Below are positions 39 to 41,580 of a stretch of 64,000 nucleotides of DNA, one piece after another. The position numbers and the translations under genes were made by a program. The stretch is from Obrimoposthia wandeli (taxonomy: Eukaryota), in the NCBI GenBank assembly GCA_977020255.1, contig CDROCS010005585.1:62001-126000 (forward strand). Reading direction: 5' to 3'. Within the stretch, counting starts at the first letter, position 1, and the number at the start of each line of letters is the position of its first letter. The notes beneath the pieces were generated by a model that saw nothing but the letters and a program-made list of their open reading frames with translations, did no database searches and was not told the origin of the DNA.

Positions 39-1067
39 ATGGAGAAGATATGGTTCAATCCAAAAGATCCAATTGGCTACACAAGAGTTTCAAAATTAGC
101 AAAAAGAACAAAACAAAATTACAAGAAAACGCAGAAATGGCTGAGCGACCAGTTAGCCTACAGTCTGAACAAGCCGATGAGAAGAAGGTTTCCAACTAGA
201 GCTTACAAAACCAGCAGTCCTAATAATTTATGGCAAATGGATTTGATGGAGATGATCCCATATTCTTCCATTAATAAGGGATATCGATATATTTTAACAT
301 GTATGGATGTATTTAGCAGGTTTGCTCGTGCAATTCCAGTTAAAGCAAAGTCTTCATTAGCTATGCTTGAAGCCATTAAAGAAATATTAAAATAGGACAT
401 TCCACAAAATGTGCAAACTGATTTAGGAAAAGAATTTTATAATAAGCAAGTTCAATCATTATTTAAACAAAATAATATAAATCATTACTCTGTGTTTTCA
501 CAATACAAAGCAGCAGTAGTAGAAAGATTTAATCGTACTCTAAGAGATCGAATAAAAACGTATTTCACAAAAGAAGGAAATAAAAAATAGATCCAAGTTT
601 TACCTAAAATAATACATGCATATAATCACTCTGAACATAGAGGTCTCAAGGGAATGAGACCTGTTGATGTTACTAATAAAAACTCTATGGACATTTGGAT
701 GAACAGGAATAAAAAAGTAAAAATTAAAAAAGCTAAATATAAGAAAAACGAATATGTTCGAATTTCGAAAATTAGCTCTACTCCATTTATTAAAAACTTT
801 AATCAGAATTGGAGCGATGAAATATTTTGTATAAGTAAAATTGATCAAAAGAGTAATCCAATAATGTATACTATTAAAGATGCTGACAATAATATCGTTC
901 ACGGTAAATTTTACGAGCAAGAACTACAAGTAATATCAAATAAACCTAGCGTTTTCCGTATTCAAAAAATATTAAAATCTAAGGGTGCCGGTAAACATAA
1001 ACAATACTTTGTTAAATGGCATGGTTATTCAGACCCAACTTGGATATCAGCATCTAATATAATATGA
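39..1067 (+). pseudogene. Retroviral-type (rve) integrase with C-terminal chromodomain-like region
   Basis: One reading frame with two in-frame TAG stops (393-395, 588-590). Catalytic motifs WQMD, VQTD and VERFNRTL; C-terminal QYFVKWHGYSDPTWI. Confidence 0.93.
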
Positions 1068-2123
1068 AGTCTATGTATATGGTTTTACCTAGTAACGGAT
1101 GTCCGAAGACTCAACCAGATATTTACGCTAGTAGCTTTATTATCGATTGGGAAAATCCTATAAATCTCCAAGGAGAATGGGAAGCGGCTTTAACCGAATT
1201 TTCTTTTTATTATTCTCCAATTACTATCAGAAAAAACTCACATGTTTCGTTTACAAAAGAAGTTGATCATGAAAAAACAACTAAAGTTGTGATCGGGTTT
1301 GATAGTAAAGGAAAATTCTTTTACAATTGTATAGATAAAGAAGTGAAAGTAATATATGAAAAAAACAAAGTCAGATTTAAAAATCGATCAAAACATTTTC
1401 AACCTATTCAAATTATATTCGAATCTGGAAAAGAAGCTCTTCAATTCGGTTTTTATAGTGGACATGTAGTAGGTATGAAGAGATCTGATATTGTCTCATC
1501 TAAAATGTTTAAAAATGTTCCTAGTAGAGTAGTAAGAGTGTTGTTAGTTGAAACGAGACCAAAGACTGTAGTGGAACTGAAAACATTTTCAAAAGATTAT
1601 AAAATAGATAGTGAAGTGAATTTCTGTAAATTAATACAGAAGGAATGTAGTGAATATTTGGATAAATGTGAAACATTAAATGGTAAATTAACGTTTACAG
1701 TAAAGAGCAATATAAAACGGGTTTCATTTGATGATAAACTCGCTAAAAACCTTGGTTTAAACAGAAATACCTTTGAAACCCATACAATAAAAACCATAAA
1801 AGCTAAAAATAAGGCAAAAACTTTTAAATACTGTTAATCATTTATATATTTATACTAATTTAATAGAACCAACGCTTGTAGGAGGACAGCAAGTTCCACT
1901 TTTGAGAACAATATGGATATCTAAAAATGAAACCAGAGATGGTGACGCTGTCGGTATGTGTATAGATCAACCAATGTATCTTCCAGTTGCTCTCTTTTCT
2001 ATAAACAATATTGAAGTAAATATTAGAGATGATTCCGGACAACTAATAGATTTCACGTACGGGGCCAAGACAATTTTAACAAGACATTTAAGAAAACAAA
2101 ATGGCGAATCCAGCTATAATTGA
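1064..2123 (+). pseudogene. Penton / minor capsid protein
   Basis: N-terminus MYMVLPSN...W(E)AALTEFSF and C-terminus YIYTNLIEPTLVGGQQVPLLR...IEVNIRDDSGQLIDF typical of Polinton/adintovirus pentons. The two halves are joined by a frameshift near 1825. ATGA overlap with the integrase stop. Confidence 0.8.
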
Positions 2124-2478
2124 AGCTTATAGTCAAAGCCAACAAGGTGGAGAATTACCATATTTTGTTGGCAAACAATATGGATCTGGCTGGCTTAGAA
2201 CATTAGGTAGATTTGCCTTTCCTCTTTTAAAGAGACTCGGGCGATTTATATCAAAATTAGGAAAGGATTACCTTTCATCTAAGTAAAATAAACTAATACC
2301 AACTTTTAAGAAGCATACGCTTGATGAACTTGATAATGTTTTACCTGAAGTTGCTAATTTGATTAGAAAACGTAAATCAAATAAAAGCCAAGGAGGTAGT
2401 AGATTTAAAAGTAAAAAGAAGCTAAAAATTAATATAAACAAACGTAAGAAAGTTGAAGGAACAATATTTGCAAAATGA
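2101..2478 (+). pseudogene. Small basic core/cement-like virion protein
   Basis: QQGGELPYFVGKQYGSGWLRTLGRFAFPLLK motif and Lys/Arg-rich tail. One in-frame TAA (2284-2286), after which the frame stays open to a TGA overlapping the hexon ATG. Contains xxGG / xGxG adenain-type cleavage-like sites. Confidence 0.65.
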
Positions 2479-3704
2479 GTTGCGCCAAAACAGAATTGTG
2501 TATTTTTGATAAACCACTCCCACAAGTAGTTGTAGATAATGCTTTCTTTGAAGAAATATTCCTAGTTAACTCAGTTTCAGGAACCACTTTAACCGATTTA
2601 GAATTTAATATTAATGGTTCAAATAGCGAGTATTTAGATTTGTATGATACTTTGCTTTATGTTCAAATAAAAGTATTAAATCGGGATGGTACTAATTTAG
2701 ATGAAAATGCCGATGTAACACCTGTAAATTATCTCTTTAATTCTTTATTTAATGATGCCATTGTTACTCTTAATAATGTCAAAATTGAAGGTGGAAATTC
2801 TTCCTATGCTCATAAAGCTTTGATTGAAAGTCTTTTGAATTATAGTACTGATACTCAAAATACTAATTTGGCAACCATTGGTTATGATAAAACTGTTGCA
2901 ACTCGCAAAGAATGGATTGCAGGTTCTAAAGCTTACGAAATGTGTGCTTCTTTGAGATTGAATTTCTTTGAACAACCGAAATATTTAATTCCCGGTGTTA
3001 ATGTACATCTTCGTTTGAAACGTAATAAATGGAATTTTTCTTTGATAAGCACGGACATTCTAAAACCTAGACTTGATATTTTGGATGCAAAATTGTATGT
3101 TCGAAGAGTTAAAACCGAGCAATCAGTTTTAATGGCACATAATATAGTAATGGAAAAAAACAACGCTTGTTATCCTATTAGAGAAACTAAACTTATATCT
3201 TATTCTTTAGGTACGGGTACACAAGCTTTTAATAAGGATCAAATTTTTGGTATTATAAGATTACCGAAATTCATTTTAATTTCTTTTCAAAAAACTGCAA
3301 AGTTTCTAGGAAATTATACGACAGATGCAACTCAATTTGACAATCTTAGTGTAGGTTCAGTGACACTTTCAAGAAATAGTGATTATCGCGAAACATATAA
3401 AACAAATTTCGAAGGTAACGCTTACGCTTTGGCTTATACCCAATCTATTATTCGGAATTTGGTTCAACTAGATAAAAATATAAACAATGGTATTTCTTTC
3501 ACTGACTTTAAAAACAGCTGCCCGTTCTTCACATTTGTTTTGGCACCAGACTTTGATATAAACCAATGTCAACTACCCAAGGATGGAAATTTACGACTAG
3601 AAATTAAGTTCAATGCAGCTTTAACACATCCTACTACGGTGCTTATTTACGGAGTATTTGATTCGGAAATAAAAATCAATAAAACCAGAACTGTCATATT
3701 ATAG
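2475..3704 (+). CDS. Hexon / major capsid protein (double jelly-roll type), intact 409 aa
   Basis: N-terminal KTELCIFDKPLPQ, NYLFNSLF, FFEQPKYLIPGV..LRLKRN and C-terminal GNLRLEIKF..AL motifs characteristic of adintovirus/Polinton MCP. Sits between the core gene and adenain. Confidence 0.9.
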   Translation: MSCAKTELCIFDKPLPQVVVDNAFFEEIFLVNSVSGTTLTDLEFNINGSNSEYLDLYDTLLYVQIKVLNRDGTNLDENADVTPVNYLFNSLFNDAIVTLNNVKIEGGNSSYAHKALIESLLNYSTDTQNTNLATIGYDKTVATRKEWIAGSKAYEMCASLRLNFFEQPKYLIPGVNVHLRLKRNKWNFSLISTDILKPRLDILDAKLYVRRVKTEQSVLMAHNIVMEKNNACYPIRETKLISYSLGTGTQAFNKDQIFGIIRLPKFILISFQKTAKFLGNYTTDATQFDNLSVGSVTLSRNSDYRETYKTNFEGNAYALAYTQSIIRNLVQLDKNINNGISFTDFKNSCPFFTFVLAPDFDINQCQLPKDGNLRLEIKFNAALTHPTTVLIYGVFDSEIKINKTRTVIL

Positions 3705-3705
3705 A

Positions 3706-4086
3706 ATGGAGTAAGACATATTTTAAATTTATATTTATTAATTTTTATTTAGTTCAAAACAAGTAAAAGAATCAGCAGAGAAGGTCCTGGGTGATAAATT
3801 CAATGGAGTTTATCCTATTGATATGATTCCATTTTTTCAATCTGGAGGTTACATTATCAATACTCATACTTCGAATTTACCAGAAGAACATTGGATAGCT
3901 ATTTATGTTAGAAAGTGGACAATACATGTATTTGATCCACTTGCAATGTATTATCCACACAAACTTGTTTCGACCATTCAAAAAGGACGAAGAAGAGTAT
4001 TTTACAACAAGATACAATATCAGGATCCTACGACGAGAAACTGTGGACATTTATGTATTTTATGGTTATCGTTGCAAAACGATTAG
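3706..4086 (+). CDS. Adenain-like cysteine protease; spliced join(3706..3710,3753..4086)
   Basis: IINTHTSNLPEEHWIAIY, HVFDPL and YQDPTTRNCG catalytic motifs. A 42-nt GTAAGA...TTTAG intron (3711-3752) gives the in-frame start MDSKQVKESAEKVLGDKFNGVYPID. Confidence 0.88.
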
Positions 4087-4349
4087 TGTGTTATAAAAAT
4101 AAATATTTTTAATGTTTTATTTTGAATTATTTTTTTAAATCTCTAAAAATATAAGGGTAAAATAATAAAAGACATAAGACAAATTTTTTTAATACATTTA
4201 TTAATCACAACATCACAATGAGATATGTCAGGAAAGATAAGGTCCAACCTAAAAAAGTATTGAAATAACAAAAAGTTAGAGTCAAGGTGCCATAGGGATC
4301 TAAAATTTTAAAAAACTAAACTAAAAAAATCAAATAAAATGAAAACCGT

Positions 4350-7300
4350 TTAAATTCTGAAGTGTCCATAAGCCAGGCTAGCGTTCTTTTCTACCCAAAA
4401 GCGCTTGTCGTCATTACTACTCAAAGCGATTTTGGTTGATTTATGGGAATACAGTTGATGGGCTCTTGAAATAAATCTAGTTTGCTCAACGCTTTCAATA
4501 CACCCAGTATCATAAACTTTCCGGTAGGCCTCATGTGTAAGATTGTTTCTTCCCACGCCCTTTGCTCTCATTGAACATGTATTATTAGATGCATGTAAAC
4601 TGTAGCATTTAGGGCGTAGGAAAATACAATCATCATACGAAACCTGTCCCTCGCTTTCATCCTTAAATTTCCCGATAATGTCCTTTAAACTCATAGAGTG
4701 TAGAGGATGGTTAGCGGGATATTTATGGGTATCTAGTAAGTTGTTCCTAAACATTGCTGGTAATAATTGATTATTTAAACTAACATTCCTACATTCTAAA
4801 AAGAAAGAATCAGTGTCACCTGCCGCGATTTTAATCTCACAATTAAATTCTTGTCGGTATTTCTCCAATTCTATGTATTGAAGCTCATACATTCTGAGTT
4901 TAGAAATGTCTAAAACCGTTTGACCTATATAACTCGGTCGATCGAGACAAATACTCTGTTTTCCTAATAACACTGCTACCAAGTCATCTGCAATTGTAAA
5001 ACTACGCTTGAAGATGTACTTGCTAGTATATGTTATTAGTTTACGCTCATCATTGCAAAACCGTAGCCAAATCTGTCATCAACTTATTCAACTGATCCAT
5101 ATCATAAACCCACTTAAAGTTGGCATGAGGTAGAGGTGAGTAAGCGCCCACCCATACAAATTATTAATATCGATGTACAGAATCTCCGTGGATTGATCTT
5201 TGACAACATGATGTTTGTTGACAAAAGTCATTCCACCGCGTATACCATAATCATACATTTGATACATCGCGGGATCTTGCAGTAACTCGATATTAATTTT
5301 AAGAGTTTTTATTGCTGTTGCCCATGAAAGACCATGTAAACTAAAGAAATGCATGGGATCTAGCCCATTTTCTGCTAAAGATTTTACACGAAAGGACTCA
5401 AAAATATCAGTTAAAAGTTTAATGTCTAACTTCATATAATAAAGCATATATTCTAAAAGATTTAGACAATTATTCGCCCAAAATGTACGGGCCTCATTAT
5501 AGTCTTGAAGACTTACACTTTCAAATTCAGTTATGGGTGGGATTTCAGTTGTATTTTCTAAATATGCAAAGGTTTTTGCAAATTTATACGGAAAAATCCC
5601 CTTATCGTTAACCGAAGCTGGGAACACTGACTGTGTGATTGGCCATGCATTTAAAGATGCCGTTAAATTTTTTAAAGACCACTCAAAAACTGTAGAGAAT
5701 CTATGAATCTTAAACTGCAGAATTCAGTATATGCAGTTAAAGATAAATATTTCTCTGAAGTTTGAGGTATACATGAAATTTCCCAAGAGCTTAATGTACC
5801 CAACGCGTATTTAAGTATATGATGCAAATCATATCCTTTGAGGTTATGAAACACGATGGGAATGCGTGGTTTTTTAGGGAGACGACGGCCAAGGTTACAA
5901 AGGTTGCACGCCGCTCCCAAGTATCGCCCCGTAACATGATCGTGATCTCTGACTAACTTAGACTGGGTTCCACACAAATAACATAATCTACAAGAATTAA
6001 AATTAACCCAGCCTATGCCTGTCATGATCATTGCTTGATGAGCATTGAGATCATACCACGGTTTGACAATTGTTGTTCCTAATTCCTCTAATTTTAACAT
6101 AAAATCTAAAATACAATTTGGACCGGAAAATTTATGATACTAGGTAATATTGGGGCCTAAGAATAGTAGTCCTGCCGAAGCCGGTAGGTGAATACTCTCA
6201 TACTGGTCGTGCAATGCTAAAATTGACTCAAAATCTGCATACACCCTGAATTCCACGGTTATGCATTTTGCCCAATCCCTGAATTTTAAATCCTTATCCT
6301 TAGGCATGGTGTATAATGTATTGTCATCAGGATTCAGTGAAGATAATGTCAGATGTTTGCTGTAAGAGAGCTCGGATCGGAACCCATGCAAACATCTATG
6401 ACACCACGTACACCTTATCCTAACCGGTAAGGCTCCATTATCTAAATTTAGAAAACGATCTAAATTGGGAATTGCAGCATAATGGAATTTTTTATTATGT
6501 TCGAGCAAAATTAAGTTGACCTGAGTCCCCTCATTTTTGCTCCTATAAATTACATCTACAAAATGATTTTTAAAAATTTCTTCATCTGTTACATTAACTG
6601 GGATATCAGTATTATATTTGAATACATTAATACTCAAGTTATTAAGATGTTCAAATCTTGATATCGCAGTTAATTTAACAGGAAAATCTATTCCATGATA
6701 CTGCAATTCATTTAAAAAAGGGGTATATTTACTGACACGCTCTCTATGCTCAGTAATTACATCTCTTTTGAGGATGGCCAACACGCTATACAGAAAGCAA
6801 AGGTTATCATTGTTTTGTACGTTAACAATGGAACGTGAAAGTTGAAGAGATCTAGGTGAAGGAATGTATGAACTCCCCGAAAGATATATTATGTCAGTGA
6901 ACTTTGTTAGAACAAAGCTAACATCGTGAATTCTAACTAGAGTCCATCCACTACTTAACTCGCTATAATTAGCAATTTTTTCATCCAGGTTTCTTCCAAT
7001 TTCAGTTACAAAATTATCATAAAAAACAGTTGCTTTATGTGAAATTACCCAAGTTTTAGTTTCCTCATTGACATTTTTAAACTGCACTGTTGCGCAAAAT
7101 TGAACCTTAGCCTGTCCTAATTTAGTCACTTCTGATTTTAAAAGATTTTCAATATTTGAATCTACACCTACGTTTAATAAAATTTCATTTCCTAATGGCA
7201 CCTTAACTATAACATATTTATTATTTAGGTGATACTCTATAGTAGCACCGTTTTCTCTACGTTTTTTGGGTGGGACCTTATTAAGAAATTGGCCTCGCCT

Positions 7301-8424
7301 CTTTCTTCCGTTTGTCGCTGACAAACCTCCCCTTAATTGAACGGGAAGACAACTATTTATATTAATAGTTGAGACAATCGCAGCTGAGGTTGAAGGAGCT
7401 ACTGTAGCAGGTGCTGCCGATGTTGAGGCAATTGCAGCTCGTGTTGTAGGTGAGGCAACTAATGTTGGTTTCGCAGATGATGCGCTTGTAGACGCAATGG
7501 TCACTCGATCATCAGTAGCTGATGTCATTGAAGCGACTGTTGTGGACGTCGATGATGCATGTGCTGAAATTAATATATTAAAAAATAAATATATTTTAAA
7601 AAATTACCTCTAAGGCGTGCTAACATCGATGTAGGCACTCGAGATGGGGAAGGGATAGCTGTCCTATCGGATGACGGCTGTATCATGGTACTTCCTGAAT
7701 AAAATAATATATATATATATATATATAATAAAAAATAAAATATATAATTACAATTTACAAAAATAAAAAATACCTAATGATGGCAATCCAAGTTGAGCTG
7801 GAATGTTGTCCTCTTCATTGACGAAATCCATCCAGCTGTCGTCCGTTGACTCGACGAAATCGGATTCCTTGATGGTCTCCAACCAGCTGTTGTCGCTCCA
7901 TTGCTCCTTCTCGAAATCTGACTAGGTGATATTTTGCATCCAGTCATTGTTTGAGAATTGGGTTGCTGGCGCCAACTCCGCGAAATCTTCTTCGGAGATG
8001 TCATTCATCCACTCATTGTTAGTCATTTGAGTGGATGAGGCAGCTGCAGAATCAGGAGACGGGAGAGAAGGACCATAAACTGGTAGACTGACTGCCACTG
8101 TAATTGGAGCAGGAGCGACCTGCGAATCACGCACCAATTGGACGATATCCCTCTTCTTGTTGTTGGCCGTGAAACACGATAGATGAGCTCGATGTTCACC
8201 GAAGAAGTCTCGAAACTCCTTCTCCTCCATTGTTCTGCAGAATGGGCAGACGAAGAAGTGAAGCCCGCGAGACTTTGTCCGATAGTAGGCGGACATTATC
8301 TCCATGCAGGTCTCTCCTCCATGCGGAGCCGAGGCACCACAATATGCTGGAAACAGGATACAAGTAATCTGAAATAATAAATATTAATAAGGAAATAATA
8401 AATATAGATTCTTATCATAGTCAT
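4350..8424 (-). pseudogene. polB: Protein-primed DNA polymerase B polyprotein (Zn-binding/acidic N-terminal extension, S/T/A linker, putative terminal-protein region, endonuclease VII, PolB); exons 8424-8416, 8368-7774, 7694-7608, 7563-4350
   Basis: Motifs YADFES, FHNLKGYDLH, FIDSLQFL, KGIFPY, YMKLDIKLL, IRGGM, YIDINNLYGWA, GDTDSF, LRPKCY, AKGV and DDKR. Endonuclease VII motif CYLC..DHDHVTGRYLGAACNLCNL. Lesions: TAG at 7922 and 6140, frameshifts near 5675 and 5140, and a deletion near 5070. Confidence 0.93.
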
Positions 8425-8464
8425 TATTTCAAATAGTCGGGGATTTAAATGAAGAAAGTGTTTG

Positions 8465-8507
8465 CTTATATACTAAAATTTATGCACACATGTTCTTTTC
8501 CTATTGG
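8465..8507 (-). promoter_or_regulatory. Putative Pol II promoter (CCAAT + TATATAA) of the polB transcript
   Basis: On the - strand, CCAAT (8507-8503) and TATATAA (8472-8466) lie ~40-80 nt upstream of the ATG at 8424. Both boxes are retained in copy 2 (~27107-27150). Confidence 0.55.
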
Positions 8508-8625
8508 ATTAAAAAAATTGAGAAGGATTGTTTATCTGTTAAATGGTCGAAAAAAATATTTTTTTATTCCTCCAATCAAAAGATTTAATTGTAATTGAAT
8601 GAAAATTATGAATTAGAAGAATTGT

Positions 8626-9113
8626 TTATCTACATGTCAAGTAATAATAAGAAAGACTTAAACATCTTTTATATGCGCAATGGTCACCATGATTACGACA
8701 TGGACAGCAAATATTTAGTGGAATTTTTAATAGATGATCACGTGAAATATTTAAAGTATTCAACCTCAATTTGAGAACATATTTTTTTAAAGTCATATAC
8801 TTTTTGCCATCCATTTCATCTAAAACATAAAAAATTCCATTTTCAATATCAAAATTAGATTTTATTGTATCGAAATACATATTTCACAAAAAGCCTTATG
8901 TCCTTCTTTCCATTTTAATAAATGAAAATAATTAGTTAGATATAAATTAGTAAATTTTTTCTTATAATCTAAACTTTTAAACGGTATATCTATTTGAAAT
9001 ATGAAATGCAATGGATGAAAAACGTCGCATACATCCATAATACATAATTCTTTTATAATATAATCCCCATTTTTGTTAATGAAAGCCTCAAAATCTATGA
9101 TATATTCCTGCAT
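8626..9113 (-). pseudogene. DnaQ/DEDD-like exonuclease with C-terminal Cys/His cluster (Maverick-type accessory gene)
   Basis: IIDFEAF...IIKELCI N-terminal motif, YLTNYFHLLKWKEG, and C-terminal CCPCRNHGDHCAYKRC. Two overlapping ORFs joined by a frameshift near 8880. Confidence 0.6.
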
Positions 9114-9227
9114 AATTATCTAAATTTGCAGCAAATCCTGTTGTTTATAACGAAGTACTTTCATGTTAAGATTGGTATATATTGTCAATTCTCCTATGTA
9201 ACATAATCAATAAAGACAAAATAATAA

Positions 9228-9756: not shown

Positions 9757-11541
9757 TTAATTTTTATAAATTATATTTTTAAACATCTTTACGAAGTCAT
9801 TATTGGGATCATCCGGGTCGTAATCCCTCCGACTAAGTATTATAGGAGAAAGCGGTACTGGTTCCTTCTTCTTTGGCCGACCCGGTTTCTTTTTGGGTTT
9901 CACCGGTTCTTTTGTAGCAATTGTCCTTCCCTCGTGTTTTGGCAATAGTTGCCGCAACTTTTTGGGAGGAGGTGCAGCCGATGTTGATGGCCCTGACATA
10001 GAAGTCCTCTTCCTCTTCCGCGGAGCTTTCTTTTGTTTCTCCTCCTTCTCACGTTGAAGCTGTCGTGAGACGGCATCATGTTGCCCACGCGAATCTGGAA
10101 GCATTGCCGGTGAATCCAGTTCCGCCAAGAATTCGTCCAATCCAGCTTCATCCCAGGCCCTCTTCAAGTTCTGGCTGGTTGTTGGACGAGAAGAAGCAGT
10201 CTCGTGCAGACGTGGTTGACTCGAGGGCGGACTTATCTCGATCGGTGAGACTGGGATCCTCTCATATAAAATTGGCCCGTCGTCCACTGGAGATAGGAGA
10301 ATCTCCTGCCGTCCAATCACCGCCTCAGAATAATGGCCAATTGAGGTGCTACATTTTCTCGAGCGCCTCGTCTTTTTCACCTCTGCCCTCTTCGTCCGTT
10401 TCCGCGAGAAAGGAGTAATTTCTCCCCAAGTCTCCTCAAATATCTGTACGGGTTCCTGCAAAATATTAATAAAATTTAAACATATAAATAATTTACCTCA
10501 ATGATGGGCAGGTTAGCCTGTTTCACCAACTTGACCTTCTTCCGAGTGAGGGTTTTGACCCGATGGCGTTGCGGTTTTTTAACTGCTGCTTGCTTCTTAT
10601 CCACCGGTTGAATAGGCGTCGCCTCTTCGAGAATGTTCTCCATCTATGTGAATTATTAAATGTAATATCTAAATAATTTACCTTAAAATTATCTGGAGAC
10701 GCTAGGTATCGGAGCTGACTCCTTGGCAGCTCCTGGCTGCATTGACTCGCCAAGTACTGCGGTTCAATCAGCCTCTCTGTCATGGTCACTGACGGTGCCA
10801 AATCCAGTTGAAGTTTCTGAAAATGAAATTAAAAAACATTTAAAATAAATGATGTCTAACCTCATTCGTCAATTTTATTCTCCTAACATGAGATTTCGGC
10901 CTTTTGAATGGTTCAGGCATTGTATTATCTGCTTTCGGAGTAGCAGAGGGAGTGAGACCATCCCAATCGTTGGTGAACAGGTGCCACTCGTCCTCGTCCA
11001 ATTCTGCTACCATCGACTCGTTGGCTCCTGGGGCTCCGATACTTGGCTGTATCCATTCGTCGATGAATGGAGTCAAGTCCTCCTCCCCATCCGACGGTAC
11101 ATCATCGGTGAACAGCTCCTCGTCTGAGTCTGGTGCGAGGACTTTCTCCGGCTGAGACAGCGGGATCAATTTCCATGACCAGGATCTCGTTGCTGCTACT
11201 GCCGAAGTTGCTGGACGAACAGCTTCTATGTTTTGCCTGGGAGTACAGTCTTCCCAATTCTCAATCGAATCCTGACTAGTCAGGTCAATATATTGGGATC
11301 TCTGTACCCCGCCTCTCACGTCCATTGGTTCTTCTCTTGGAGTTGAGCTTGCCAATGAGGCTTCTTCTTCCAACAGGTTCGCTCTTGCTGCTGCTTCTCC
11401 TTCGCTCACCACCGATGAGTCTTGACTATCTAAGTCAATGTATTGCGACGGTGGTGGCGTTCGCTACTGCACTGGAGAGAGATCCCCATAGAGTTGAACC
11501 TCCGTCTCTTCGTCTAGGTCAACGTTGTTGTAGAATGGCAT
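9757..11541 (-). pseudogene. Four-exon accessory gene (~553 aa; acidic N-terminus, SIM-like motifs, basic C-terminus with AT-hook-like GRP)
   Basis: Exons 11541-10861, 10816-10682, 10643-10497 and 10455-9757, all phase 0, separated by 44-, 38- and 41-nt GT-AG introns. A single TAG at codon 26. Confidence 0.72.
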
Positions 11542-11574
11542 TGTTGATTTATGAAAAATAATGAACGGAGGTGT

Positions 11575-11619
11575 CTTTATATACACAAACATCTTACTAA
11601 CCATCTTTTATTGTCCAAT
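11575..11619. promoter_or_regulatory. Putative promoter of the accessory gene (CCAAT + TATATAAAG)
   Basis: TATATAAAG on the - strand (11583-11575), ~35 nt upstream of ATG 11541; CCAAT at 11615-11619. TATA box is conserved in copy 2 near 25520. Confidence 0.55.
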
Positions 11620-11861
11620 GAGAGCCTCTTATTCAAATAATTTATATTTTGTAATGTTTTTTCGTGCCTGTAGATCAAGAATGAAGCCCGCCCCAAAAGG
11701 TCGGGTGGTGTATGTTAGGGTCTTGGGTATGACGCGGGTCGTTTACATTTGTAGTTGTGAGAGGTAAAGTGATACTGTAACGCGTGTATTTGTAGTTATT
11801 TTCGTGAGAATAGAGCCCGCCCCTAAGGGGCGGGTGGTGGTCGGTGGGTGTTTCCATCCAA

Positions 11862-11993
11862 CACCCGTCGACTTTCACCCATCACCCGTCGACTTTTACC
11901 CATCACCCGTCGACTTTCACCCATCACCCATCGACTTTCACCCATCACCCATCGACTTTCACCCATCACCCATCGACTTTCACCCATCACCCA
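11862..11993. repeat. Subterminal tandem repeat, 21 bp x ~6.3 (CACCC[G/A]TCGACTTTCACCCAT)
   Basis: Units start at 11862, 11883, 11904, 11925, 11946 and 11967, plus a partial unit. Confidence 0.97.
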
Positions 11994-12055
11994 AGGAAGT
12001 CTGTGATATACAGCAGACCGAGACATTCGCCCATCGCCCAAAAAAAGTTGTGACC

Positions 12056-12131
12056 CCCCCTTGTCCTTTAAAACCGTGCATGTGTGTGGAGTTCACTCCA
12101 CACACATGCACGGTTTTAAAGGACAAGGGGG
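12056..12131. repeat. Perfect subterminal palindrome/hairpin, 36-bp stem with TTCA loop
   Basis: 12056-12091 (CCCCCTTGTCCTTTAAAACCGTGCATGTGTGTGGAG) is the exact reverse complement of 12096-12131. Confidence 0.97.
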
Positions 12132-12259
12132 TGTGGATTATACCGGACACATCCACCTACTAATGATTACCAAAGTGATTACCATATGATATAACCAATA
12201 TTTATGCTAAATTTTTCCAATAAGGGTAGATTTGATATAAAAAAATTTAATCGTCTTTT

Positions 12260-13014: not shown

Positions 13015-13692
13015 CTACCTACTTGTTATGAAATATATTATTAATTTGACTTTTTTAGGCAATAAATCAAATGATGTTACATTAATAGGTTTTCTACCAT
13101 TCGAAACTCGACAAAGGGGAATGATTATAAGATAACAAAAGCTTAGGTAATACATCAACCAATTTCTCGTTACACATTTCAGTGAAAAAAAGAAATTTAT
13201 TAATGTACGATTAAATCTCTCTACCAGAGCTCCTTTAAATTGAGAAAATACAAAGTATTGATTAATACCGAACTTTTCAAATAAATTATCAACATTTTCA
13301 TCAATAAATTTCTTGCCTTGATCAGTTTGAATATTTACAGGTACAAGATCAATCAATAATCTTAGAGTGTCTTAAATATATTTTGCACATTTTGATTTTA
13401 CATGTATTGCACAAGCAAATCTTCTAAATACATCAATACATCTCAAAATGTATTTATAACCGCTACTATTACTAGTTTAAGGTATCAACTTTTTAACTTA
13501 TCAATAAAATCCATTAACCATAAATCATTAGCTCCACTAGCTTTGTACGATCCGGTTGAAAATCTTATTATTGTCGGTTTGCTGAGACTGTAGGTTAGTT
13601 GGTTGCTCTTGACTATATTCTAAGTTTGATTGTAAAGCTTCAACGCCTCTGTAGTCAGCTAAGTCTTCGATATCGTACCCCCATGTTTCCAT
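13015..13692 (-). pseudogene. Second, divergent adintovirus-type integrase (copy 3), heavily decayed
   Basis: Frameshifted remnants PTYSLSKPTIIRFSTGSYKASGANDLWLMD, GYKYILRCIDVFRRFACAI, NIQTDQGKKF and VERFNRTL align with the integrase at 39-1067. Confidence 0.85.
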
Positions 13693-13769
13693 TATAAAAA
13701 TATTATAAATTTATATTACGAAAATTATTATCCATGAAATTTATTATCTTGCAGCCTTTGCAAGTAAAG

Positions 13770-14060
13770 GACCCAGCAATATAAATATTAATGGTATTAT
13801 ACCACAAATAAATTCTCCGTTTTGTTTCAACAAAGCTTTAGTATGCCGAATTTACTCTTTCTATTCACAATATCAAGTAGTACCTCTAATATTTGTATAG
13901 AAATTTATACTTATGTTTTACAATCTCAACTTTACTATTATCCACTAATTTATCGATTACATGAGGCGGAATATATCTTTGGATTTTGTTTCTTTTAGTA
14001 CTTGAAGCTCTAACAAAAGTTTCAAACAATGGTACAATATTTTTTGGAATCATTTTATCA
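13770..14060 (-). pseudogene. Remnant of a small Polinton-type protein ending in KQNGEFICGIIPLIFILLGPLLAKAAR
   Basis: Resembles the Q-x-G-x-F-hydrophobic tail of small adintovirus/Polinton proteins; lies immediately upstream of the copy-3 integrase. Confidence 0.4.
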
Positions 14061-15838: not shown

Positions 15839-17135
15839 CAGGGTGCGGAGAAAGTCCCCGATCTCATAAAACGTTAAATTTAACTACTAATAAAGGTTGA
15901 AATTAAACAAAAAATAACACACACCATTTTTTAGAGCTTTTTTTAACATTTATACTATCTATTTTCTAATGTGGCCGCCTTTGGCTTCAATTACACGCTC
16001 AAGTCTCCCCTGAAGCTCTTCACTGCGGCACGAAAGGATTCCTGGGAAATTTGGCCCATTCCCGCTTAAGAGACTTCTTCAAAGCTTCTGTATTATCATG
16101 GGCTGTAGCGCAGGCCTCTCTCTCCAAGATGGACCAGACACAAAAGTCCAGAGGGTTCAAGTAAGGTGATGAAGGAGGCCACAATTCCTTCCTCCAGAAA
16201 GCTGGAAAGTGATTTTCACACCAGTCCTGAGTTTTGTTCGCAGTGTGAGAGGGCGCACCGTCCTGTTGGAATGTGAAAGGGTCATTTTTGAAATGTTTCT
16301 TCATTTCAACATGGGCTGGAGTCAAAATATACTGGATGTACGAGTTTGCGTTAACTTTGGCACCCTCTTTAACAAAAATGAGAGAGGAACTCCAATTCTC
16401 AGAGATGGCAGCCCATACCATTACCGAGCTAGGTTTTTGGCGACGATAAACGGATTTTACCGAACTGGGAATGCTATCAGCACTCTTAGCTAAAATTCTG
16501 TCGTTCTGCGAGTTGAACTGGGCCTCAACAGTGAACATTTTTTCATCAGAAAAGACAATTACCCCAGCATCCGTGCCATCCTTCTTTCGGTTCAGGAGAA
16601 TCTTGACTCTTTCGACCCTCTTCTGTTTTTGCAATTCCGTCAGTTGTTGTATGTTGGTCATCTTGAAAGGGGATAACTTGAGATCATCTTTGTCAATTGT
16701 TCTGACAGTTTTTTCGTCAACTTTGAAGTCCTTGGCCATTTTCCTCATTCTTCGTTTGGGGTTCCTCCTTATTCGCTCCCTAACGGCCTTTATTTTGGCT
16801 GGGGTGCGAGCAGTTCGGGGTCATCCACTTCTGGGACGATCGTCTGATGTCCCAAGTTCTTTGTATCGGTTTACTGCATCCCGAACTGTTGATTTTGGAG
16901 CTTTTAAGATCTTAACAATTTCTGGGTTCGTCTTTCCCGCGCAATGAAGTTGGATAATGGCCTCACGTTTACTCATTTTAAACAAATGCAAATTAAATTT
17001 TAGGAAATTTGGATCTGAAACATATAAATATATGTATCTACAAACAAAATAAGCCAAAAATGGATAAATTTAGTTAAATAATAATATCTTTAATTCAATT
17101 TTCAAAATTCGATCGGGAACTTTCTCCGCACCCTG
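15839..17135 (-). mobile_element. Full-length DD37D (maT / Bmmar1-like) Tc1/mariner transposon, 1297 bp
   Basis: 25-bp TIRs CAGGGTGCGGAGAAAGT[C/T]CCCGATC with 1 mismatch and TA target duplication on both sides. Confidence 0.95.
15959..16976 (-). pseudogene. DD37D transposase
   Basis: MSKREAIIQLHCAG HTH; VFSDEK, FQQDGAPSH and SSPYLNPLDF, with 37 residues between the 2nd and 3rd Asp. In-frame TGA at 16821-16823 and two frameshifts near the C-terminus (original end likely ...VIEAKGGHIRK). Confidence 0.92.
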
Positions 17136-24806: not shown

Positions 24807-27655
24807 CTTTCTTTTTTCTTTTAAACACCTGAACTCAACGGATGGACCTAAGTGCTCAAAAAGAGATAATTTTGGTCAATAAATTAAATTTTTTGTTATT
24901 GCTGTAAGTATATTTTAAAGATTATTATTTGACATTTATGTGCATCTAGATAAATTCCTTCTCATTTTATTGTTGGTTCATGCTCCCATTGTTTTTAAAT
25001 GACTCTAGGTAAAATATTTATACACATTACATGTGATTTCGTTTACAATATTTAAAATCATTACAAAATAGAAAAATAATGTTTTAATATAGAAATCTGG
25101 TAAAATTCTGATTTAGATAATTATATATTCCAATGACTGTCATCTAAAGTAAGTGGCGATTGACGTTAACAAAAATAACAGATCACAAAGAGTTTTTGAA
25201 TAATATTTTTTATTTAAGGTTAAAAACACAAATTAATTAAATACAAGAGCTTCCGTTGCATGCAGCAATCTTTCAAAGTCTGTAGAATAAATTATCATTT
25301 TGAATAAACTATTTAGCCCTTGTTGCCTTGCTATTTTTTTCGACTTAAGTTAAATAATTTTTGCCTTGCGACAACACTCACAGAAAGAAGATCTTTATTA
25401 TAGTTACTATGGAGTATCATGAAATGCCTTATCACTAGAAATTGTGCATTTTCAAATAAATTATTTTAATAAGACGCTCTCACTGGACGATAAAAGAGGG
25501 TTAGTCTGATTTTTGTGTATATAAAGAGACATCCGTTCATTATTTTACATAAATCAAAATCAACAATGTCATTCTACAACAACACCACCACCGTCGCAGT
25601 ACATTGACTTACTTAGTATATATTACAAATATATATGACTAGTCAGGATTCGATTGAGTATTGGGAATACTGTACTCCCCGCCAGAACATAGAGGCCACT
25701 CGTCCAGCAACTTCGGCAGTAGCAGCAAGGAGATCCAATCTCTAACAATTTTGAGGCAGCAATCAAACGCCCCTGGATTTTGATCACGCTGTCTCAGCCG
25801 GAGATAGTCCTCGCACCAGACTCAGACGAGGAGCTGTTCAACGATGACGTACCGTTAAATGGGGAGGAGGACTGGACTATTTGTCGACGAATGGATACAG
25901 CCAAGTATTGGAGCTCCAGGGGCCAACGAGTCGATGGTAGCAGAATTAGATGATGACGAGTGGCGCCTATTCACTGACGATGGGGATGGTCTCACTCCAA
26001 CTCCGATAGTCGACAATACGGTGCCTGAACCAGTCAGAAGGCCGCAATCTCCGATACGTGCTGTTAGGAGAATAAAGACAACGAATGTGGTTGAACTTCA
26101 TTTATTTAAAATGTTTTTTTAATTTAATTTTCAAAAACTTCAACTGGATATAGCACCGTCAGTGACCACGGCGGAGAGGCTGATAGAACTACAGTACTTG
26201 GCGAGTCAATGCAGCCAAGAGCTGCCAAAGAGTGAGCTCCGATACCTAGCGTCTCCTGATAATGTTAAGGTAAATTATTTTTTAATTGGAAGAAGGACAA
26301 GTTGGTGAAACAGGCTAACCTACCTGTCATTGAGGTAAATTATTTATATGTTGAAATTTTATTAATGTTTTTTGTTGTTGCAGGAATCCATCCAGATAAT
26401 TGAGCAGACATGGGGAGAAATTACTCCATTCCTAAGAAACGGACGAAGAAAGCAGAGGTGCGTAAAACGAAGCGCTCGAGAAAATGTCGCACCACGAAGC
26501 TCAATTTTTCTGAGGCGGTGATTGGACAGCAGGAGATTCTCCCATATCCAGTGGACGACGGGCCAATTCTGTACGAGAGAATACATGTCTCTCCGATCGA
26601 GATTAGTCCGCCACCGAGTCAACGACGCCTGCAGGAGACATCACCGGCTTCATTGAGTATAAACCAAAATTTGGCCAGGGCTTGGGAGACTGCTTCTTCT
26701 CGTCCAACAACCACCCTGAACTTGAATAGGGCCTGGGATGAAGCTGGATTAGACGAATTGCTAGCGGAACTGGATACTCCGCAACCGGTAATGCTTCCAG
26801 ATACCTTAAATATTTCGCGTGATCATCTATTAAAAATTCTACGAAATATTTGCTGTCCATATCGTGATCATGGTGACCATTGCGCATATAAAAACTGTAT
26901 AAGTCTATCTTATTATTACTTGACATGTAGATAAACAATTCTTCTAAATGGAAAATTCATTATTTACAAAATAAAATTTTCATCCAATTACAAATACAAA
27001 TGAACAATCCTTTTAATTGGAGGAATAAAATATATTAAAAATAATATTATCAACCAATAAGAGATAAACAATCCTTCTTAGTGGAGGAATAAATTCAATA
27101 TTTTCATCCAATAATAAAAGAGCATGTGTGCATAAAATTTTGTATATAAGCAAACACTTTTTTCATTTCAATTCCCGACTATTAGAAATAATGAATATGG
27201 TAAGAAACGTTATTTTTTATTTCTTTATTAATATTTATTTTTTAGAATACGTGTTCCCTGTTTTCAGCCTATTGTGGTGCTTCGGCTCCGCATGGAGGAG
27301 ATTCCTGCATCGAGATAATGTCTGCCTACTATCGGACAAAGTATCAAGGGCGGGTATTCTTCGTCTGCCCCTTCTGCAGAACTATGGAGAAGGAGTTTCG
27401 AGACTTCTTCGGTGAACATCGAGATCACCTATCCTGTTTCACGGCCAACAAGAAGAAGAGGGATATCGTGCAATTGGTGCGCGATTCGCATGTCGCTACA
27501 GCTCCTGCCCCTGATCCAGTTGTAGCCCTTCAACCCGTTTGTGGTCCTGCGATTGGTCCTTTTCTTCAGTCTCTCGATTATGCAGCTGCCTCATCCACTC
27601 AAATGACTAACAATGAGTGAATGAACGACATATCCCCAGAAGATTTTGAGATGTA
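24787..27655 (+). mobile_element. Adintovirus copy 2: internally deleted right end, inverted relative to copy 1
   Basis: 25440-27655 is the reverse complement (about 85% by eye) of 11645-7970 with deletions: promoter, accessory gene exons, exonuclease C-terminus, pol mini-exon/intron (27200-27245) and Zn-finger exon. Confidence 0.88.
26410..26934 (+). CDS. Chimeric ORF (accessory exon 4 fused in frame to the exonuclease C-terminal Cys/His cluster); duplicated in truncated form at 29478-29894
   Basis: ...LDELLAELDTPQPVMLPD|TLNISRDHLLK...CCPYRDHGDHCAYKNC; junction near 26802. Confidence 0.55.
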   Translation: MGRNYSIPKKRTKKAEVRKTKRSRKCRTTKLNFSEAVIGQQEILPYPVDDGPILYERIHVSPIEISPPPSQRRLQETSPASLSINQNLARAWETASSRPTTTLNLNRAWDEAGLDELLAELDTPQPVMLPDTLNISRDHLLKILRNICCPYRDHGDHCAYKNCISLSYYYLTCR

Positions 27656-28229
27656 GCAGCCTCAATGGAAAGGTTGGGTTAACAATGAGCTGAATTGTCG
27701 TTTTATTGAATCTTCATATTTAAATTTTTTGAATATTAACAGGAAGTTGGAAATTGACTTAAATGCACAATCTGAGTTCTTCCATATAAGAATTTTTGTA
27801 ACATTAATTGTTTGCGTCAGTTGATTTTGTATTGTTGCAATAGTTTGCTTTTTTAAATATATTGTTCATCAAATTGATAATCGAATTGAATTATTTAATA
27901 AATTAATATTATTTAATCGAAGTTTCTAAAATTATTGGTAACATTTATAAGCCTTAAAATTCAAACCAAAAATGTCCTCAAGAGCTGCGAAAATAGTCGA
28001 AGATGATATTGGGACGCCTGATCAAGTTTTGAATACTAATAAATCGGGTATGTATTCGAAGAGTTTCATGTGGATATACAAGTATACACAGATCGAAGCA
28101 CATTACGCCTGTGTTCCAACGAATCTTTAGATTACACGTTGAGACTTGTGTTTTTAATCGTGTTATAAATCGTTTATAAATGTAAAGACTGCAACGAAAT
28201 CTTGTCATTTATTGGTATACTAACATGAA

Positions 28230-28640
28230 ATCACTGGCTACGACTAAAATAATGAAGAACTAGTTCTCTCAATGTTTTATTTCTGGCACTGAAGCATTAA
28301 TGAAGAAGAACAATCTCCCATTCATTATTTTATCATTAAAAGACAACACTCCAGGACATCCAATCGATCTATACGATGAAAATATGCAAATTATTCTATT
28401 ACCATCCAATACTACACCACTTATTCGAAGGTTTGATTACGGTATTACTGCTTACCATATAAAACAAACTATTTCGAGAGAAAAAAAATCAGTTATATTC
28501 AAATAACTCGTTGAGAAAAATTCTTAATTTTGGAATATGTAAAAATAACAGAATGTGCGATTTGTGAAATAAAATCATCAACTTTAAATGCTTAATGCAA
28601 AGTTATCTGGCCTGAGGCAGTTTTCGATATAATTGAGATC
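28230..28640 (+). pseudogene. Tigger/pogo DDE transposase fragment (copy at 31190-31600)
   Basis: KNNLPFIILSLKDNTPGHP...IILLPSNTTPLIRRFDYGI matches LDNAPGHP / FLPPNTTSLIQPMDQGI. Confidence 0.8.
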
Positions 28641-29039
28641 CCATCATTACACATGAATTTTCTCTGATTACGAATAGTTGCTGAGTTTGTTTCCAGTGAA
28701 TCCAGCGAAAATGATGACTCTGATAATTTAGCTCCATCATTTAATTTCAGCACAGCAGAAAATGAATTTTTGCGGCTATAGAGCTAGAAAATTAGTCGCT
28801 CGTTAAGGCTGCAGATATGGATCGAAGCAAAAATTTCGGAAAGAAATTACGAAACTCCATAAATCTGATTTTGTATTTGTTTCTCGCATGTATTGTATAC
28901 AGTTTTTAAATAAATATTAGATTTTTACACAAGAAATAAAAACAATAGAGAATATCGGATGATAGTTTGCCGTTGTTTGCCTAGTAATTTTTAGTTGACA
29001 TTTGACTGACCCAAAAGATTTTGCTGACTACATCGTACA

Positions 29040-29428
29040 CTGAACACCATATCTGGAGAATTTTGATAGCTGATACATAATCTTTTTATTTAGGTATTTC
29101 ACCGGACGTTTTATGAATCCTCTAAATAATCGTGGGATGGTAACGTTAATCCCCGCATTGATGGAGCTATAAATACAGTGATTGTGTCTGGAATTTTGAC
29201 ATCCGTGATAACCAATGATCTATCTGATTTTAGTTTCTAATATAGGCTGGTTTCATCGATATGGTAAATGTCAAAGGGTTTATATCTTTAAAGAATGGTC
29301 GGAATCAGTTTTTTTAGGCTCATCAGCCAAAACTTTCGAGCATATAGAATACTATGCATTCACCGATTGATCCAGCAAAGTGATGCACGGGTTGCTGTAA
29401 CTTCTGTTTCTTGAAGCCGCAAGGTCCC
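29040..29428 (-). pseudogene. Second Tigger/pogo fragment (longer copy 32000-32450)
   Basis: YKPFDIYHIDETSLY*KLKSDRSLV matches DIFNADETGLFYK..P.KTL. Confidence 0.65.
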
Positions 29429-32400
29429 GAAGCGCTCGAGAAAATGTCGCACCACGAAGCTCAATTTTTCTGAGGCGGTGATTGGACAGCAGGAGATTCT
29501 CCCATATCCAGTGGACGACGGGCCAATTCTGTACGAGAGAATACATGTCTCTCCGATCGAGATTAGTCCGCCACCGAGTCAACGACGCCTGCAGGAGACA
29601 TCACCGGCTTCATTGAGTATAAACCAAAATTTGGCCAGGGCTTGGGAGACTGCTTCTTCTCGTCCAACAACCACCCTGAACTTGAATAGGGCCTGGGATG
29701 AAGCTGGATTAGACGAATTGCTAGCGGAACTGGATACTCCGCAACCGGTAATGCTTCCAGATACCTTAAATATTTCGCGTGATCATCTATTAAAAATTCT
29801 ACGAAATATTTGCTGTCCATATCGTGATCATGGTGACCATTGCGCATATAAAAACTGTATAAGTCTATCTTATTATTACTTGACATGTAGATAAACAATT
29901 CTTCTAAATGGAAAATTCATTATTTACAAAATAAAATTTTCATCCAATTACAAATACAAATGAACAATCCTTTTAATTGGAGGAATAAAATATATTAAAA
30001 ATAATATTATCAACCAATAAGAGATAAACAATCCTTCTTAGTGGAGGAATAAATTCAATATTTTCATCCAATAATAAAAGAGCATGTGTGCATAAAATTT
30101 TGTATATAAGCAAACACTTTTTTCATTTCAATTCCCGACTATTAGAAATAATGAATATGGTAAGAAACGTTATTTTTTATTTCTTTATTAATATTTATTT
30201 TTTAGAATACGTGTTCCCTGTTTTCAGCCTATTGTGGTGCTTCGGCTCCGCATGGAGGAGATTCCTGCATCGAGATAATGTCTGCCTACTATCGGACAAA
30301 GTATCAAGGGCGGGTATTCTTCGTCTGCCCCTTCTGCAGAACTATGGAGAAGGAGTTTCGAGACTTCTTCGGTGAACATCGAGATCACCTATCCTGTTTC
30401 ACGGCCAACAAGAAGAAGAGGGATATCGTGCAATTGGTGCGCGATTCGCATGTCGCCACAGCTCCTGCCCCTGATCCAGTTGTAGCCCTTCAACCCGTTT
30501 GTGGTCCTGCGATTGGTCCTTTTCTTCAGTCTCTCGATTATGCAGCTGCCTCATCCACTCAAATGACTAACAATGAGTGAATGAACGACATATCCCCAGA
30601 AGATTTTGAGATGTAGCAGCCTCAATGGAAAGGTTGGGTTAACAATGAGCTGAATTGTCGTTTTATTGAATCTTCATATTTAAATTTTTTGAATATTAAC
30701 AGGAAGTTGGAAATTGACTTAAATGCACAATCTGAGTTCTTCCATATAAGAATTTTTGTAACATTAATTGTTTGCGTCAGTTGATTTTGTATTGTTGCAA
30801 TAGTTTGCTTTTTTAAATATATTGTTCATCAAATTGATAATCGAATTGAATTATTTAATAAATTAATATTATTTAATCGAAGTTTCTAAAATTATTGGTA
30901 ACATTTATAAGCCTTAAAATTCAAACCAAAAATGTCCTCAAGAGCTGCGAAAATAGTCGAAGATGATATTGGGACGCCTGATCAAGTTTTGAATACTAAT
31001 AAATCGGGTATGTATTCGAAGAGTTTCATGTGGATATACAAGTATACACAGATCGAAGCACATTACGCCTGTGTTCCAACGAATCTTTAGATTACACGTT
31101 GAGACTTGTGTTTTTAATCGTGTTATAAATCGTTTATAAATGTAAAGACTGCAACGAAATCTTGTCATTTATTGGTATACTAACATGAAATCACTGGCTA
31201 CGACTAAAATAATGAAGAACTAGTTCTCTCAATGTTTTATTTCTGGCACTGAAGCATTAATGAAGAAGAACAATCTCCCATTCATTATTTTATCATTAAA
31301 AGACAACACTCCAGGACATCCAATCGATCTATACGATGAAAATATGCAAATTATTCTATTACCATCCAATACTACACCACTTATTCGAAGGTTTGATTAC
31401 GGTATTACTGCTTACCATATAAAACAAACTATTTCGAGAGAAAAAAAATCAGTTATATTCAAATAACTCGTTGAGAAAAATTCTTAATTTTGGAATATGT
31501 AAAAATAACAGAATGTGCGATTTGTGAAATAAAATCATCAACTTTAAATGCTTAATGCAAAGTTATCTGGCCTGAGGCAGTTTTCGATATAATTGAGATC
31601 CCATCATTACACATGAATTTTCTCTGATTACGAATAGTTGCTGAGTTTGTTTCCAGTGAATCCAGCGAAAATGATGACTCTGATAATTTAGCTCCATCAT
31701 TTAATTTCAGCACAGCAGAAAATGAATTTTTGCGGCTATAGAGCTAGAAAATTAGTCGCTCGTTAAGGCTGCAGATATGGATCGAAGCAAAAATTTCGGA
31801 AAGAAATTACGAAACTCCATAAATCTGATTTTGTATTTGTTTCTCGCATGTATTGTATACAGTTTTTAAATAAATATTAGATTTTTACACAAGAAATAAA
31901 AACAATAGAGAATATCGGATGATAGTTTGCCGTTGTTTGCCTAGTAATTTTTAGTTGACATTTGACTGACCCAAAAGATTTTGCTGACTACATCGTACAC
32001 TGAACACCATATCTGGAGAATTTTGATAGCTGATACATAATCTTTTTATTTAGGTATTTCACCGGACGTTTTATGAATCCTCTAAATAATCGTGGGATGG
32101 TAACGTTAATCCCCGCATTGATGGAGCTATAAATACAGTGATTGTGTCTGGAATTTTGACATCCGTGATAACCAATGATCTATCTGATTTTAGTTTCTAA
32201 TATAGGCTGGTTTCATCGATATGGTAAATGTCAAAGGGTTTATATCTTTAAAGAATGGTCGGAATCAGTTTTTTTAGGCTCATCAGCCAAAACTTTCGAG
32301 CATATAGAATACTATGCATTCACCGATTGATCCAGCAAAGTGATGCACGGGTTGCTGTAACTTCTGTTTCTTGAAGCCGCAAGGTCCCTCCACCTGAATT

Positions 32401-39860: not shown

Positions 39861-40124
39861 AAAAAAGAACTGGGTGTGTCGTTTTCGAGTTTTCGTTATT
39901 GCATTCATTAGTTGAGTAGCAGATTTTGTTGTTTCAGGTAACAAACCAGGTACCTCCTTAATCGCATTTTATTTTAGTAGATTCAAAATTAGTTTATAAT
40001 TCATTACTACATTACTACATTTGTAAGTGTTTTTGCACCAATTACTTCTAAACATGATAATATAAGAAAATCAATTTACCCAAACTTTTCTGAATCCATG
40101 CAAACATATATGACACCACTTACA

Positions 40125-41580
40125 CCTCATCCTAACCAGTAAGGCTCCATTATCTAAATTTAGAAGACGATCTAAATTGGGAATTGCAGCATAGTGGAAT
40201 TTGTTATAATGCTCGCCAAAATTAAGTTGACCGGAGTCACCTCATTTTTGCTCCTATATATTACATTTACAAAAGGATTTTAAACATTTCTTTATCTATT
40301 ACATTAGCTGGGAACTCAGTATTATATTTGAATATTCAAGTTATTAAGGTGTTCAAATCTTTATATTGCAGTTAATTTATCAGGAAAGTCTATTCCGCGA
40401 TACTGCAATTCATTTAAAAAGGGTATATTTACTGACACGCTCTCTGTGCTTAGTAATTACATCCCTTTTGAGAATGGCCAACACGATATACAGAAAGCAA
40501 AGGTTATCACTGTTTTGTACGTTAACAGTGGAACATGAAAGTTGAAGAGATCTAGGTGAAGGAATGTATGAACTCCCCAAAAGATATATCATGTCAGAGA
40601 ACTTTATTAGAACAAAGCTAACACCGTGAATTCTAACCCACTACTTAACTCGCTATAATTAGCAATTTTTTCATCTAAATTTCTTATAATTTCAGTTACA
40701 AAATTATCATAGAAAACAGTTGCTTTATGTGAAATTACCCCATTTTTAGGCTCCTCATTGACATTTTTAAACTGCAATCTTGCGCAAAATTGAATCTTAG
40801 CCTGATCTAATTTAGTCACTTTGATTTTAAAAGACTTTCAATATTTGAATCTACACCTACGTTAATAAATTTTTATTTCCAAATGGCACCTTAACTATAA
40901 CATAATTATTATTTAGGTGATACTCTATTTTATTTGTAAATATTTTATTTTTCCAATTATAAGTATTGTTTATCTACATGTCAAGTAATAGTAAAATAGA
41001 CTTATACACTTTTTATATGCGCAATGGTCACCATTATCGCGATATGGACAGCATATATTTCGTGGAATTTTTAATAGATAATCACGTGAAATATTTAAGG
41101 TATTCAATCTCAATTTTGAAAAATATTTTTTTAAAGTCTTATACTTTTTGCATCCATTTCATTTAAAACATAAAAAAATCCATTTTCAATATCAAAATTA
41201 GATTTAATTGTATCGAAATTGTATTTCCTTCTTTCCATTCTAATAAATAAAAATAATTAGTGAGATATAAATTAGTAAATTTTTTCTTATAATCTAAACT
41301 CATAAATGGGATATCTACATGAAATATGAAATGCAACGGATGAAAAACGTCGCATATATCCATAATATATAATTATTTTTTAATATATTCTCCATTTTTG
41401 TTAATGAAAGCCTCAAAGTCTATGAGATATTTTTGCATAATTACCCAAATATGTAGCAAATCCCTTTGTTTATAACGAAAAAAAGAGAAAGCATTAAATA
41501 AAATATATTAAAATATCAAAGTAATCCGTGTTCATTTTTCTCTGTAAAACAAGTACATATTTTCAATTCTCCTATGAATA
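40125..41580 (-). mobile_element. Adintovirus copy 4: deleted fragment (pol N-terminal region joined to the exonuclease gene)
   Basis: 40125-40928 matches 6410-7241 and 40950-41580 matches 8620-9200, same orientation as copy 1, high identity by eye. Confidence 0.92.

Follow-up and report, generated by a model that had tools for sequence, protein, structure and literature searches.

The protein-primed family B DNA polymerases (pPolBs) of polintons are described with two N-terminal globular domains, namely TP (for terminal protein) and vOTU, and, in the accessible text of that account, with nothing before TP (PMC11161782). The vOTU cut is likely located between TP and vOTU, and adenoviruses have an inactive vOTU and make TP and polymerase as two distinct proteins (PMC11161782). 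Published additions to pPolBs encompass inserts of HNH and VSR type, both in pPolB2, and fusion to a helicase (10.1101/2023.08.22.554363, PMC10748475, PMC12721341), and the literature presents Oncoid (PMC8502044) and Ziftr as genes of their own. Vertebrate Mavericks, when intact, are reported to be intronless (PMC8097293); dinoflagellate polinton-like elements carry introners, mostly post-integration (PMC11957031).

The DNA analyzed here (the window, 64,000 nucleotides) originates from Obrimoposthia wandeli (GCA_977020255.1, CDROCS010005585.1:62,001-126,000, forward strand); positions are counted within the window, and the polymerase gene is read on the minus strand. The host genome is of animal type, and the left part of the window harbors a decayed polinton. 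As in the available descriptions of Polinton and Beta-adintovirus pPolBs (PMC11161782, PMC8502044), its minus-strand pPolB, distributed over four frames, shows the vOTU Cys and His and matches to DNA_pol_B_2 and Endonuclease_7. Its neighbors include capsid-like and protease-like ORFs on the plus strand and an integrase-like end with a chromodomain. The latter has a Chromo match; the capsid-like and protease-like ORFs were called by likeness to those of the polinton loci L111 and L130 and gave no match in Pfam. The right end of the element lies at about 12161, beside a hairpin and 21-nt repeats, with what we take to be its terminal motif. In contrast to the published Polinton pPolBs, as far as these accounts describe them (PMC11161782, PMC8097293), the window family carries about 330 aa ahead of TP, encoded on exons predicted to be spliced. 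The features are as follows.

8467-8472, minus strand: TATA-like hexamer, a putative promoter, placed about 45 nt before the start codon (TATATA in 89 mapped copies)
8416-8424, minus strand: exon 1, predicted, three codons, phase 0
8369-8415, minus strand: intron 1, 47 nt, GC 13%, donor non-canonical in the window copy
8368-7774, minus strand: exon 2 (Cys/His exon)
8135-8368, minus strand: Cys/His module, C-x6-C-x5-H-x4-C, helix, beta-hairpin, CPxC-x14-H-xx-H
8021-8134, minus strand: Pro/Ala/Ser linker
7805-8020, minus strand: Trp-acidic repeats, four in number (8020-7982; 7951-7913, interrupted by a stop; 7894-7856; 7843-7805); most other copies have three or four
7695-7773, minus strand: intron 2, GT-AG, phase 1, 79 nt long and including a TA run
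7608-7694, minus strand: exon 3, located between repeats and Ser/Thr/Ala linker, 87 nt long here and 93 nt in another subfamily
7564-7607, minus strand: intron 3, 44 nt, GT-AG, phase 1
7343-7563, minus strand: start of exon 4, a Ser/Thr/Ala linker of variable length
7322-7342, minus strand: Gln-Leu-Gly/Arg-Gly-Gly motif, candidate site for the protease of the element
7256-7306, minus strand: two basic clusters, a likely nuclear localization signal (NLS)
4350-7240, minus strand: pPolB core (TP-position domain, vOTU, Endonuclease VII insert, exonuclease, polymerase), in four frames in the window copy
11852-12161: right end of the element, with tandem repeats of 21 nt, an 82-nt hairpin (12053-12134), and AGTAG at the terminus on the minus strand
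27191-27650, plus strand: copy 2 of exons 1-2, ending after repeat 1 and duplicated 2960 nt downstream
40089-41479, minus strand: copy 3, which lacks the stretch matching 7240-8611 through a private deletion

The polymerase gene is likely spliced from four exons. The three-codon exon, the Cys/His exon, the four Trp-acidic repeats, and the in-frame Ser/Thr/Ala linker of the extension proposed in the preliminary description are all present, but the 87-nt exon at 7694-7608 had been missed. The polinton family is abundant, with at least 150 scored matches (not copy numbers) per genome search. From 110 fetched loci, three were set aside (copy 3 with its deletion and two loci duplicating copies of the window), leaving 107 genomic copies, in 79 of which all splice sites could be mapped. 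Across the 107 copies, the reading frame that leads into a Beta-type polinton pPolB is preserved by three short AT-rich GT-AG introns. GC content is 6-13% in the introns versus 47-52% in the leader exons. Of the 104 mapped copies, 96 have a GT first donor; an ATG together with six canonical splice sites is present in 53 of the 79 evaluable copies, and in 17 of these the frame stays open as far as the core. Since introns 2 and 3 are both in phase 1, the frame into PolB is kept with or without exon 3. The main length classes of exon 2 (619 nt with four repeats, 26/96; 526 nt with three, 18/96) and the length classes of exon 3 (87 nt, 62/91; 93 nt, 14/91) differ by whole codons, and repeat number changes in frame between copies. 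Because the copies are young, the splice dinucleotides (0.87-0.99 conserved) barely exceed the intron interiors (0.89-0.92). Among 85 copies, 32 have lost the frame in the 5' part of exon 4, in some measure through a recurrent one-base loss at about 7333 that also occurs in short-read contigs; this loss affects a G run directly before the NLS and is seen in about 14% of the short-read depth and in many assembled copies. The four read runs aligned here have the character of DNA. The window copy itself is dead, given its non-canonical first donor, the stop in repeat 2, and frameshifts in the core. The leader introns match the style of the host, whose RPA1-like gene contains a 38-nt AT-rich intron (11% GC); the host RPA70N is split by introns. 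The adenovirus E2B pre-terminal protein also has a three-codon first exon, spliced to a replication protein, and its precursor part is cut off by the virion protease at Gly-rich sites. Both properties parallel the window gene as an analogy only, with no claim of homology between the leaders.

Recurrent variants reveal purifying selection, with pN/pS values of 0.16 (module), 0.31 (repeats), and 0.18-0.29 (N-part of PolB), compared with 0.77-2.03 in shifted frames of module and repeats and about 1 for singletons. Constraint is weak in exon 3 (0.75) and in the Ser/Thr/Ala linker (0.64). Four Trp repeats arose in none of 100,000 shuffles, for a pattern chosen after the fact.

Several further observations concern the surroundings of the gene. 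Upstream of it (9757-11551, minus strand) lies a gene with similar short AT-rich introns, two acidic/Ser QYIDL repeats, which we take to be SUMO-interaction-like, several Trp-acidic motifs, and a basic tail; its product is a candidate early regulatory protein. Between the two (8626-9150, minus strand), a broken gene ends in a Cys/His cluster and is 45% identical to an ORF located ahead of PolB in L130; L111 and L115 contain similar ORFs. The acidic motif at the N-terminus of the broken gene resembles that of an exonuclease, and Pfam gave no match. L111, a polinton relative, codes for a TATA-binding protein homologue (11330-11779, minus strand; PF00352, E 5e-18) and an E2 ubiquitin-conjugating-like ORF (13480-13977). 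Copy 2 resides in a near-perfect 2,960-bp tandem duplication (99.97%, window 26468-32388), either recent or an assembly artefact, and a fragment of a Tc1/mariner-type DDE_3 transposase is located at 16020-16820 (minus strand).

The Zn-type module is very probably fused to the pPolB. The fusion to the replicase had been proposed from the window alone, where copy 2, broken after repeat 1, is uninformative on this point, and it is now supported by intronless orthologues and by the independently spliced L115. P0001, the best match of the PolB search (41% identity), begins with the same module (E 2e-10), and P0001/L111 hold module and PolB in a single intronless ORF of 1,298-1,303 aa. The same genome has a second polinton family, L130-L132, which shows 43% identity over the N-part of PolB and encodes in one frame and without introns the module, with its first site shortened, an A/S/P/T linker, basic clusters, and PolB. 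Module and pPolB also share one intronless frame in metagenomic relatives, and P0118 carries one and a half module copies before a full pPolB, again intronless. L113 has half a module in frame with PolB; two half modules were noted there (L113:2-388 and 381-4655), one in an upstream frame and one in the PolB frame. Upstream exons also occur in L115, where five AT-rich GT-AG introns of 42-46 nt, at positions differing from those of the window family, join module and PolB and where the only open chains from its ATG use five introns; P0062, a database protein, corresponds to the L115 PolB ORF minus the spliced module leader. Among 29 loci selected solely on PolB, 26 have the module upstream. Four of 43 module matches continue into TP/vOTU at E<1e-9, and one of 57 long pPolB homologues (P0001 only) contains the module. 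It is highly improbable that the Cys/His exon is a separate gene merely abutting PolB, which would then start at a linker Met (the 462-aa ORF): such a Met is present in 16 of 34 readable copies, but it is not conserved, the other 18 lacking any Met from acceptor 3 up to the core, within which the first Met usually comes after 116 residues, and several lineages show intronless fusions.

The module likely has two Zn sites. It defines a family of about 70 aa (38 of 43 matches), occurring in one to three tandem copies. The Cys/His pattern had earlier been called conserved in copy 2; eight Cys/His are kept in distant relatives, but not the final Cys or the His that precedes CPFC. Two AlphaFold runs agree on a compact module (pLDDT 80 and 77), modeled with one hairpin and a short strand. 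No match was found in Pfam, NCBIfam, PDB sequences, or by fold, and the module does not fit a classical C2H2 finger (C-x2-4-C-x12-H-x3-5-H, PF00096). A language-model lead to a thioredoxin/nucleoredoxin fold (0.88), in which CxxC precedes a helix lying on a four-stranded sheet, shared few features and was not repeated with a relative. Neither module nor leader is described in the literature searched (openly readable papers, mostly without supplements), and the module apparently represents an undescribed domain family. The preliminary description had not recognized the architecture among known pPolBs, which holds insofar as no described family matched; the slot, however, is not unique, as N-terminal DNA-binding add-ons are common in the pPolB group.

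Behind the leader, the core contains a family B protein-primed polymerase domain (PF03175, E 1e-7), a vOTU whose catalytic Cys (near 6799, motif at 6808) and His (near 6484, motif at 6487), assigned by motif and position and not by fold, are common to homologues, and ahead of it a domain conserved, by profile, at the position expected for a PRD1-like TP. The same slot before TP, scanned in 10 other proteins, is occupied by C2H2 fingers (P0026, P0057), Rho_N/HeH repeats (P0038), AT-hooks (P0033), or basic helices. These four named pPolBs resemble that of the window in having an add-on before TP, often a low-complexity linker, and in some cases Gln-x-Gly-x-Gly, but the window module matches none of their families and they lack Trp-acidic repeats. 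Of 39 leaders, 5 have Gln-x-Gly-x-Gly or Gln-x-Gly-Gly at most 70 residues from the core, versus 0.2 expected, for a pattern chosen post hoc; the motif is also contained in small basic ORFs of L111. Most copies of the window family have Gln-Leu-Gly-Gly before the core, a motif that we take to resemble the adenain consensus; it is absent from the module-bearing P0078/P0118, P0084, P0102, and P0110.

The Trp-acidic repeats are seen only in the window family and are absent from all relatives collected, including the second family of the same genome, and are therefore not core to the architecture. They resemble the RPA70N-binding motif (about 20 aa, acidic-hydrophobic) in composition only, and activation domains have an equally acidic-hydrophobic make-up. 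Like the motifs of PrimPol, HelB, and ETAA1, they are short, repeated, acidic-hydrophobic, with Trp/Phe, and situated on a DNA-replication enzyme (PMC10479964, PMC5457501, as far as described there). In the accessible text of PMC10479964, RPA70N ligands are acidic-hydrophobic without a common consensus; since they share composition and not sequence, the likeness is weak evidence.

Taken as a whole, we lean slightly towards a pre-TP-like leader whose Zn module tethers the polymerase or the genome ends to DNA. One mRNA would encode Zn module, acidic repeats, Ser/Thr/Ala linker, Gly motif, NLS, TP, vOTU, and polymerase, and the NLS would import the precursor. Once priming has taken place, cleavage by vOTU would follow behind TP (the Krupovic 2024 model) and, because this cut falls between TP and vOTU, the leader would stay on TP at the genome 5' ends. 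There the module may bind DNA or chromatin, as C2H2 fingers, AT-hooks, and HeH repeats may do in the same slot elsewhere; it is this occupancy of the slot by C2H2, AT-hooks, or HeH/Rho-N repeats in other pPolBs that gives the tethering role a somewhat better than even chance. The element's right end (11852-12161) is a candidate target for the module. A virion protease may trim the leader at the Gly motif in a manner similar to adenovirus pre-TP, although such release is only tentatively proposed. The repeats could serve as a lineage-specific, disordered, multivalent docking strip for a host factor with a basic cleft (RPA70N or a co-activator); this docking is the weakest step, and recruitment of host RPA is doubtful.

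Two other readings of the leader accept the fusion. The locus might have a dual output, with retention of intron 2 yielding a short E1A-like transactivator made of Zn module and acidic repeats and the long form being the polymerase. An in-frame stop inside intron 2 in 79 of 90 copies agrees with this, although chance alone predicts stops in AT-rich introns, and intron 2 seldom contains a poly(A) hexamer (AATAAA 4/90, ATTAAA 10/90). A Zn module beside acidic-aromatic repeats is a textbook transcription-factor layout, and P0077, P0081, and P0091 are module relatives with C2H2 fingers and no PolB part in the protein as called, but module-bearing relatives lack the repeats and no LxCxE motif is present. 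Adintovirus Oncoid genes, too, lie upstream of PolB and, like adenovirus E1A, combine a Cys motif with acidic stretches, at least in the cases described (PMC8502044). An Oncoid/E1A-like identity was rejected for exon 2, which lacks LxCxE, has one CxxC only, and is in frame with PolB instead of forming a separate ORF. We consider a dual output unlikely. Similarly improbable is that the module acts as a protein- or ubiquitin/SUMO-binding adaptor without DNA binding of its own, placing the polymerase at host repair/replication foci or presenting substrates to vOTU. In its favor, the module is not strongly basic in the window family, tandem copies occur, and a vOTU retaining its two catalytic residues is part of the same polypeptide; a sub-threshold zf_UBZ match (E 0.003) in one relative is weak and single, and the alternatives in the slot are all nucleic-acid binders.

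Extended beyond the window family, the tethering leader suggests a wider, speculative scheme, in which Beta polinton pPolBs would carry, before TP, a swappable leader that remains on the genome ends once vOTU has cut and that the virion protease trims, much as if an adenovirus-like pre-TP were part of the polymerase. A large branch would use a new two-zinc DNA-binding fold, the acidic motifs of the window family would recruit host RPA in place of a viral ssDNA-binding protein, and short host-style introns would have entered the leader independently in different lineages, hiding it from gene callers. Replicating polintons can probably have spliceosomal introns in their polymerase gene, and ORF-only annotation would therefore truncate the pPolB, as exemplified by P0062. 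With the 70-aa module, the candidate cleavage motif, and the repeat strip, origin choice by polintons, retention of their genomes in the nucleus, and protection of ssDNA without a DBP gene become testable on small natural fragments.
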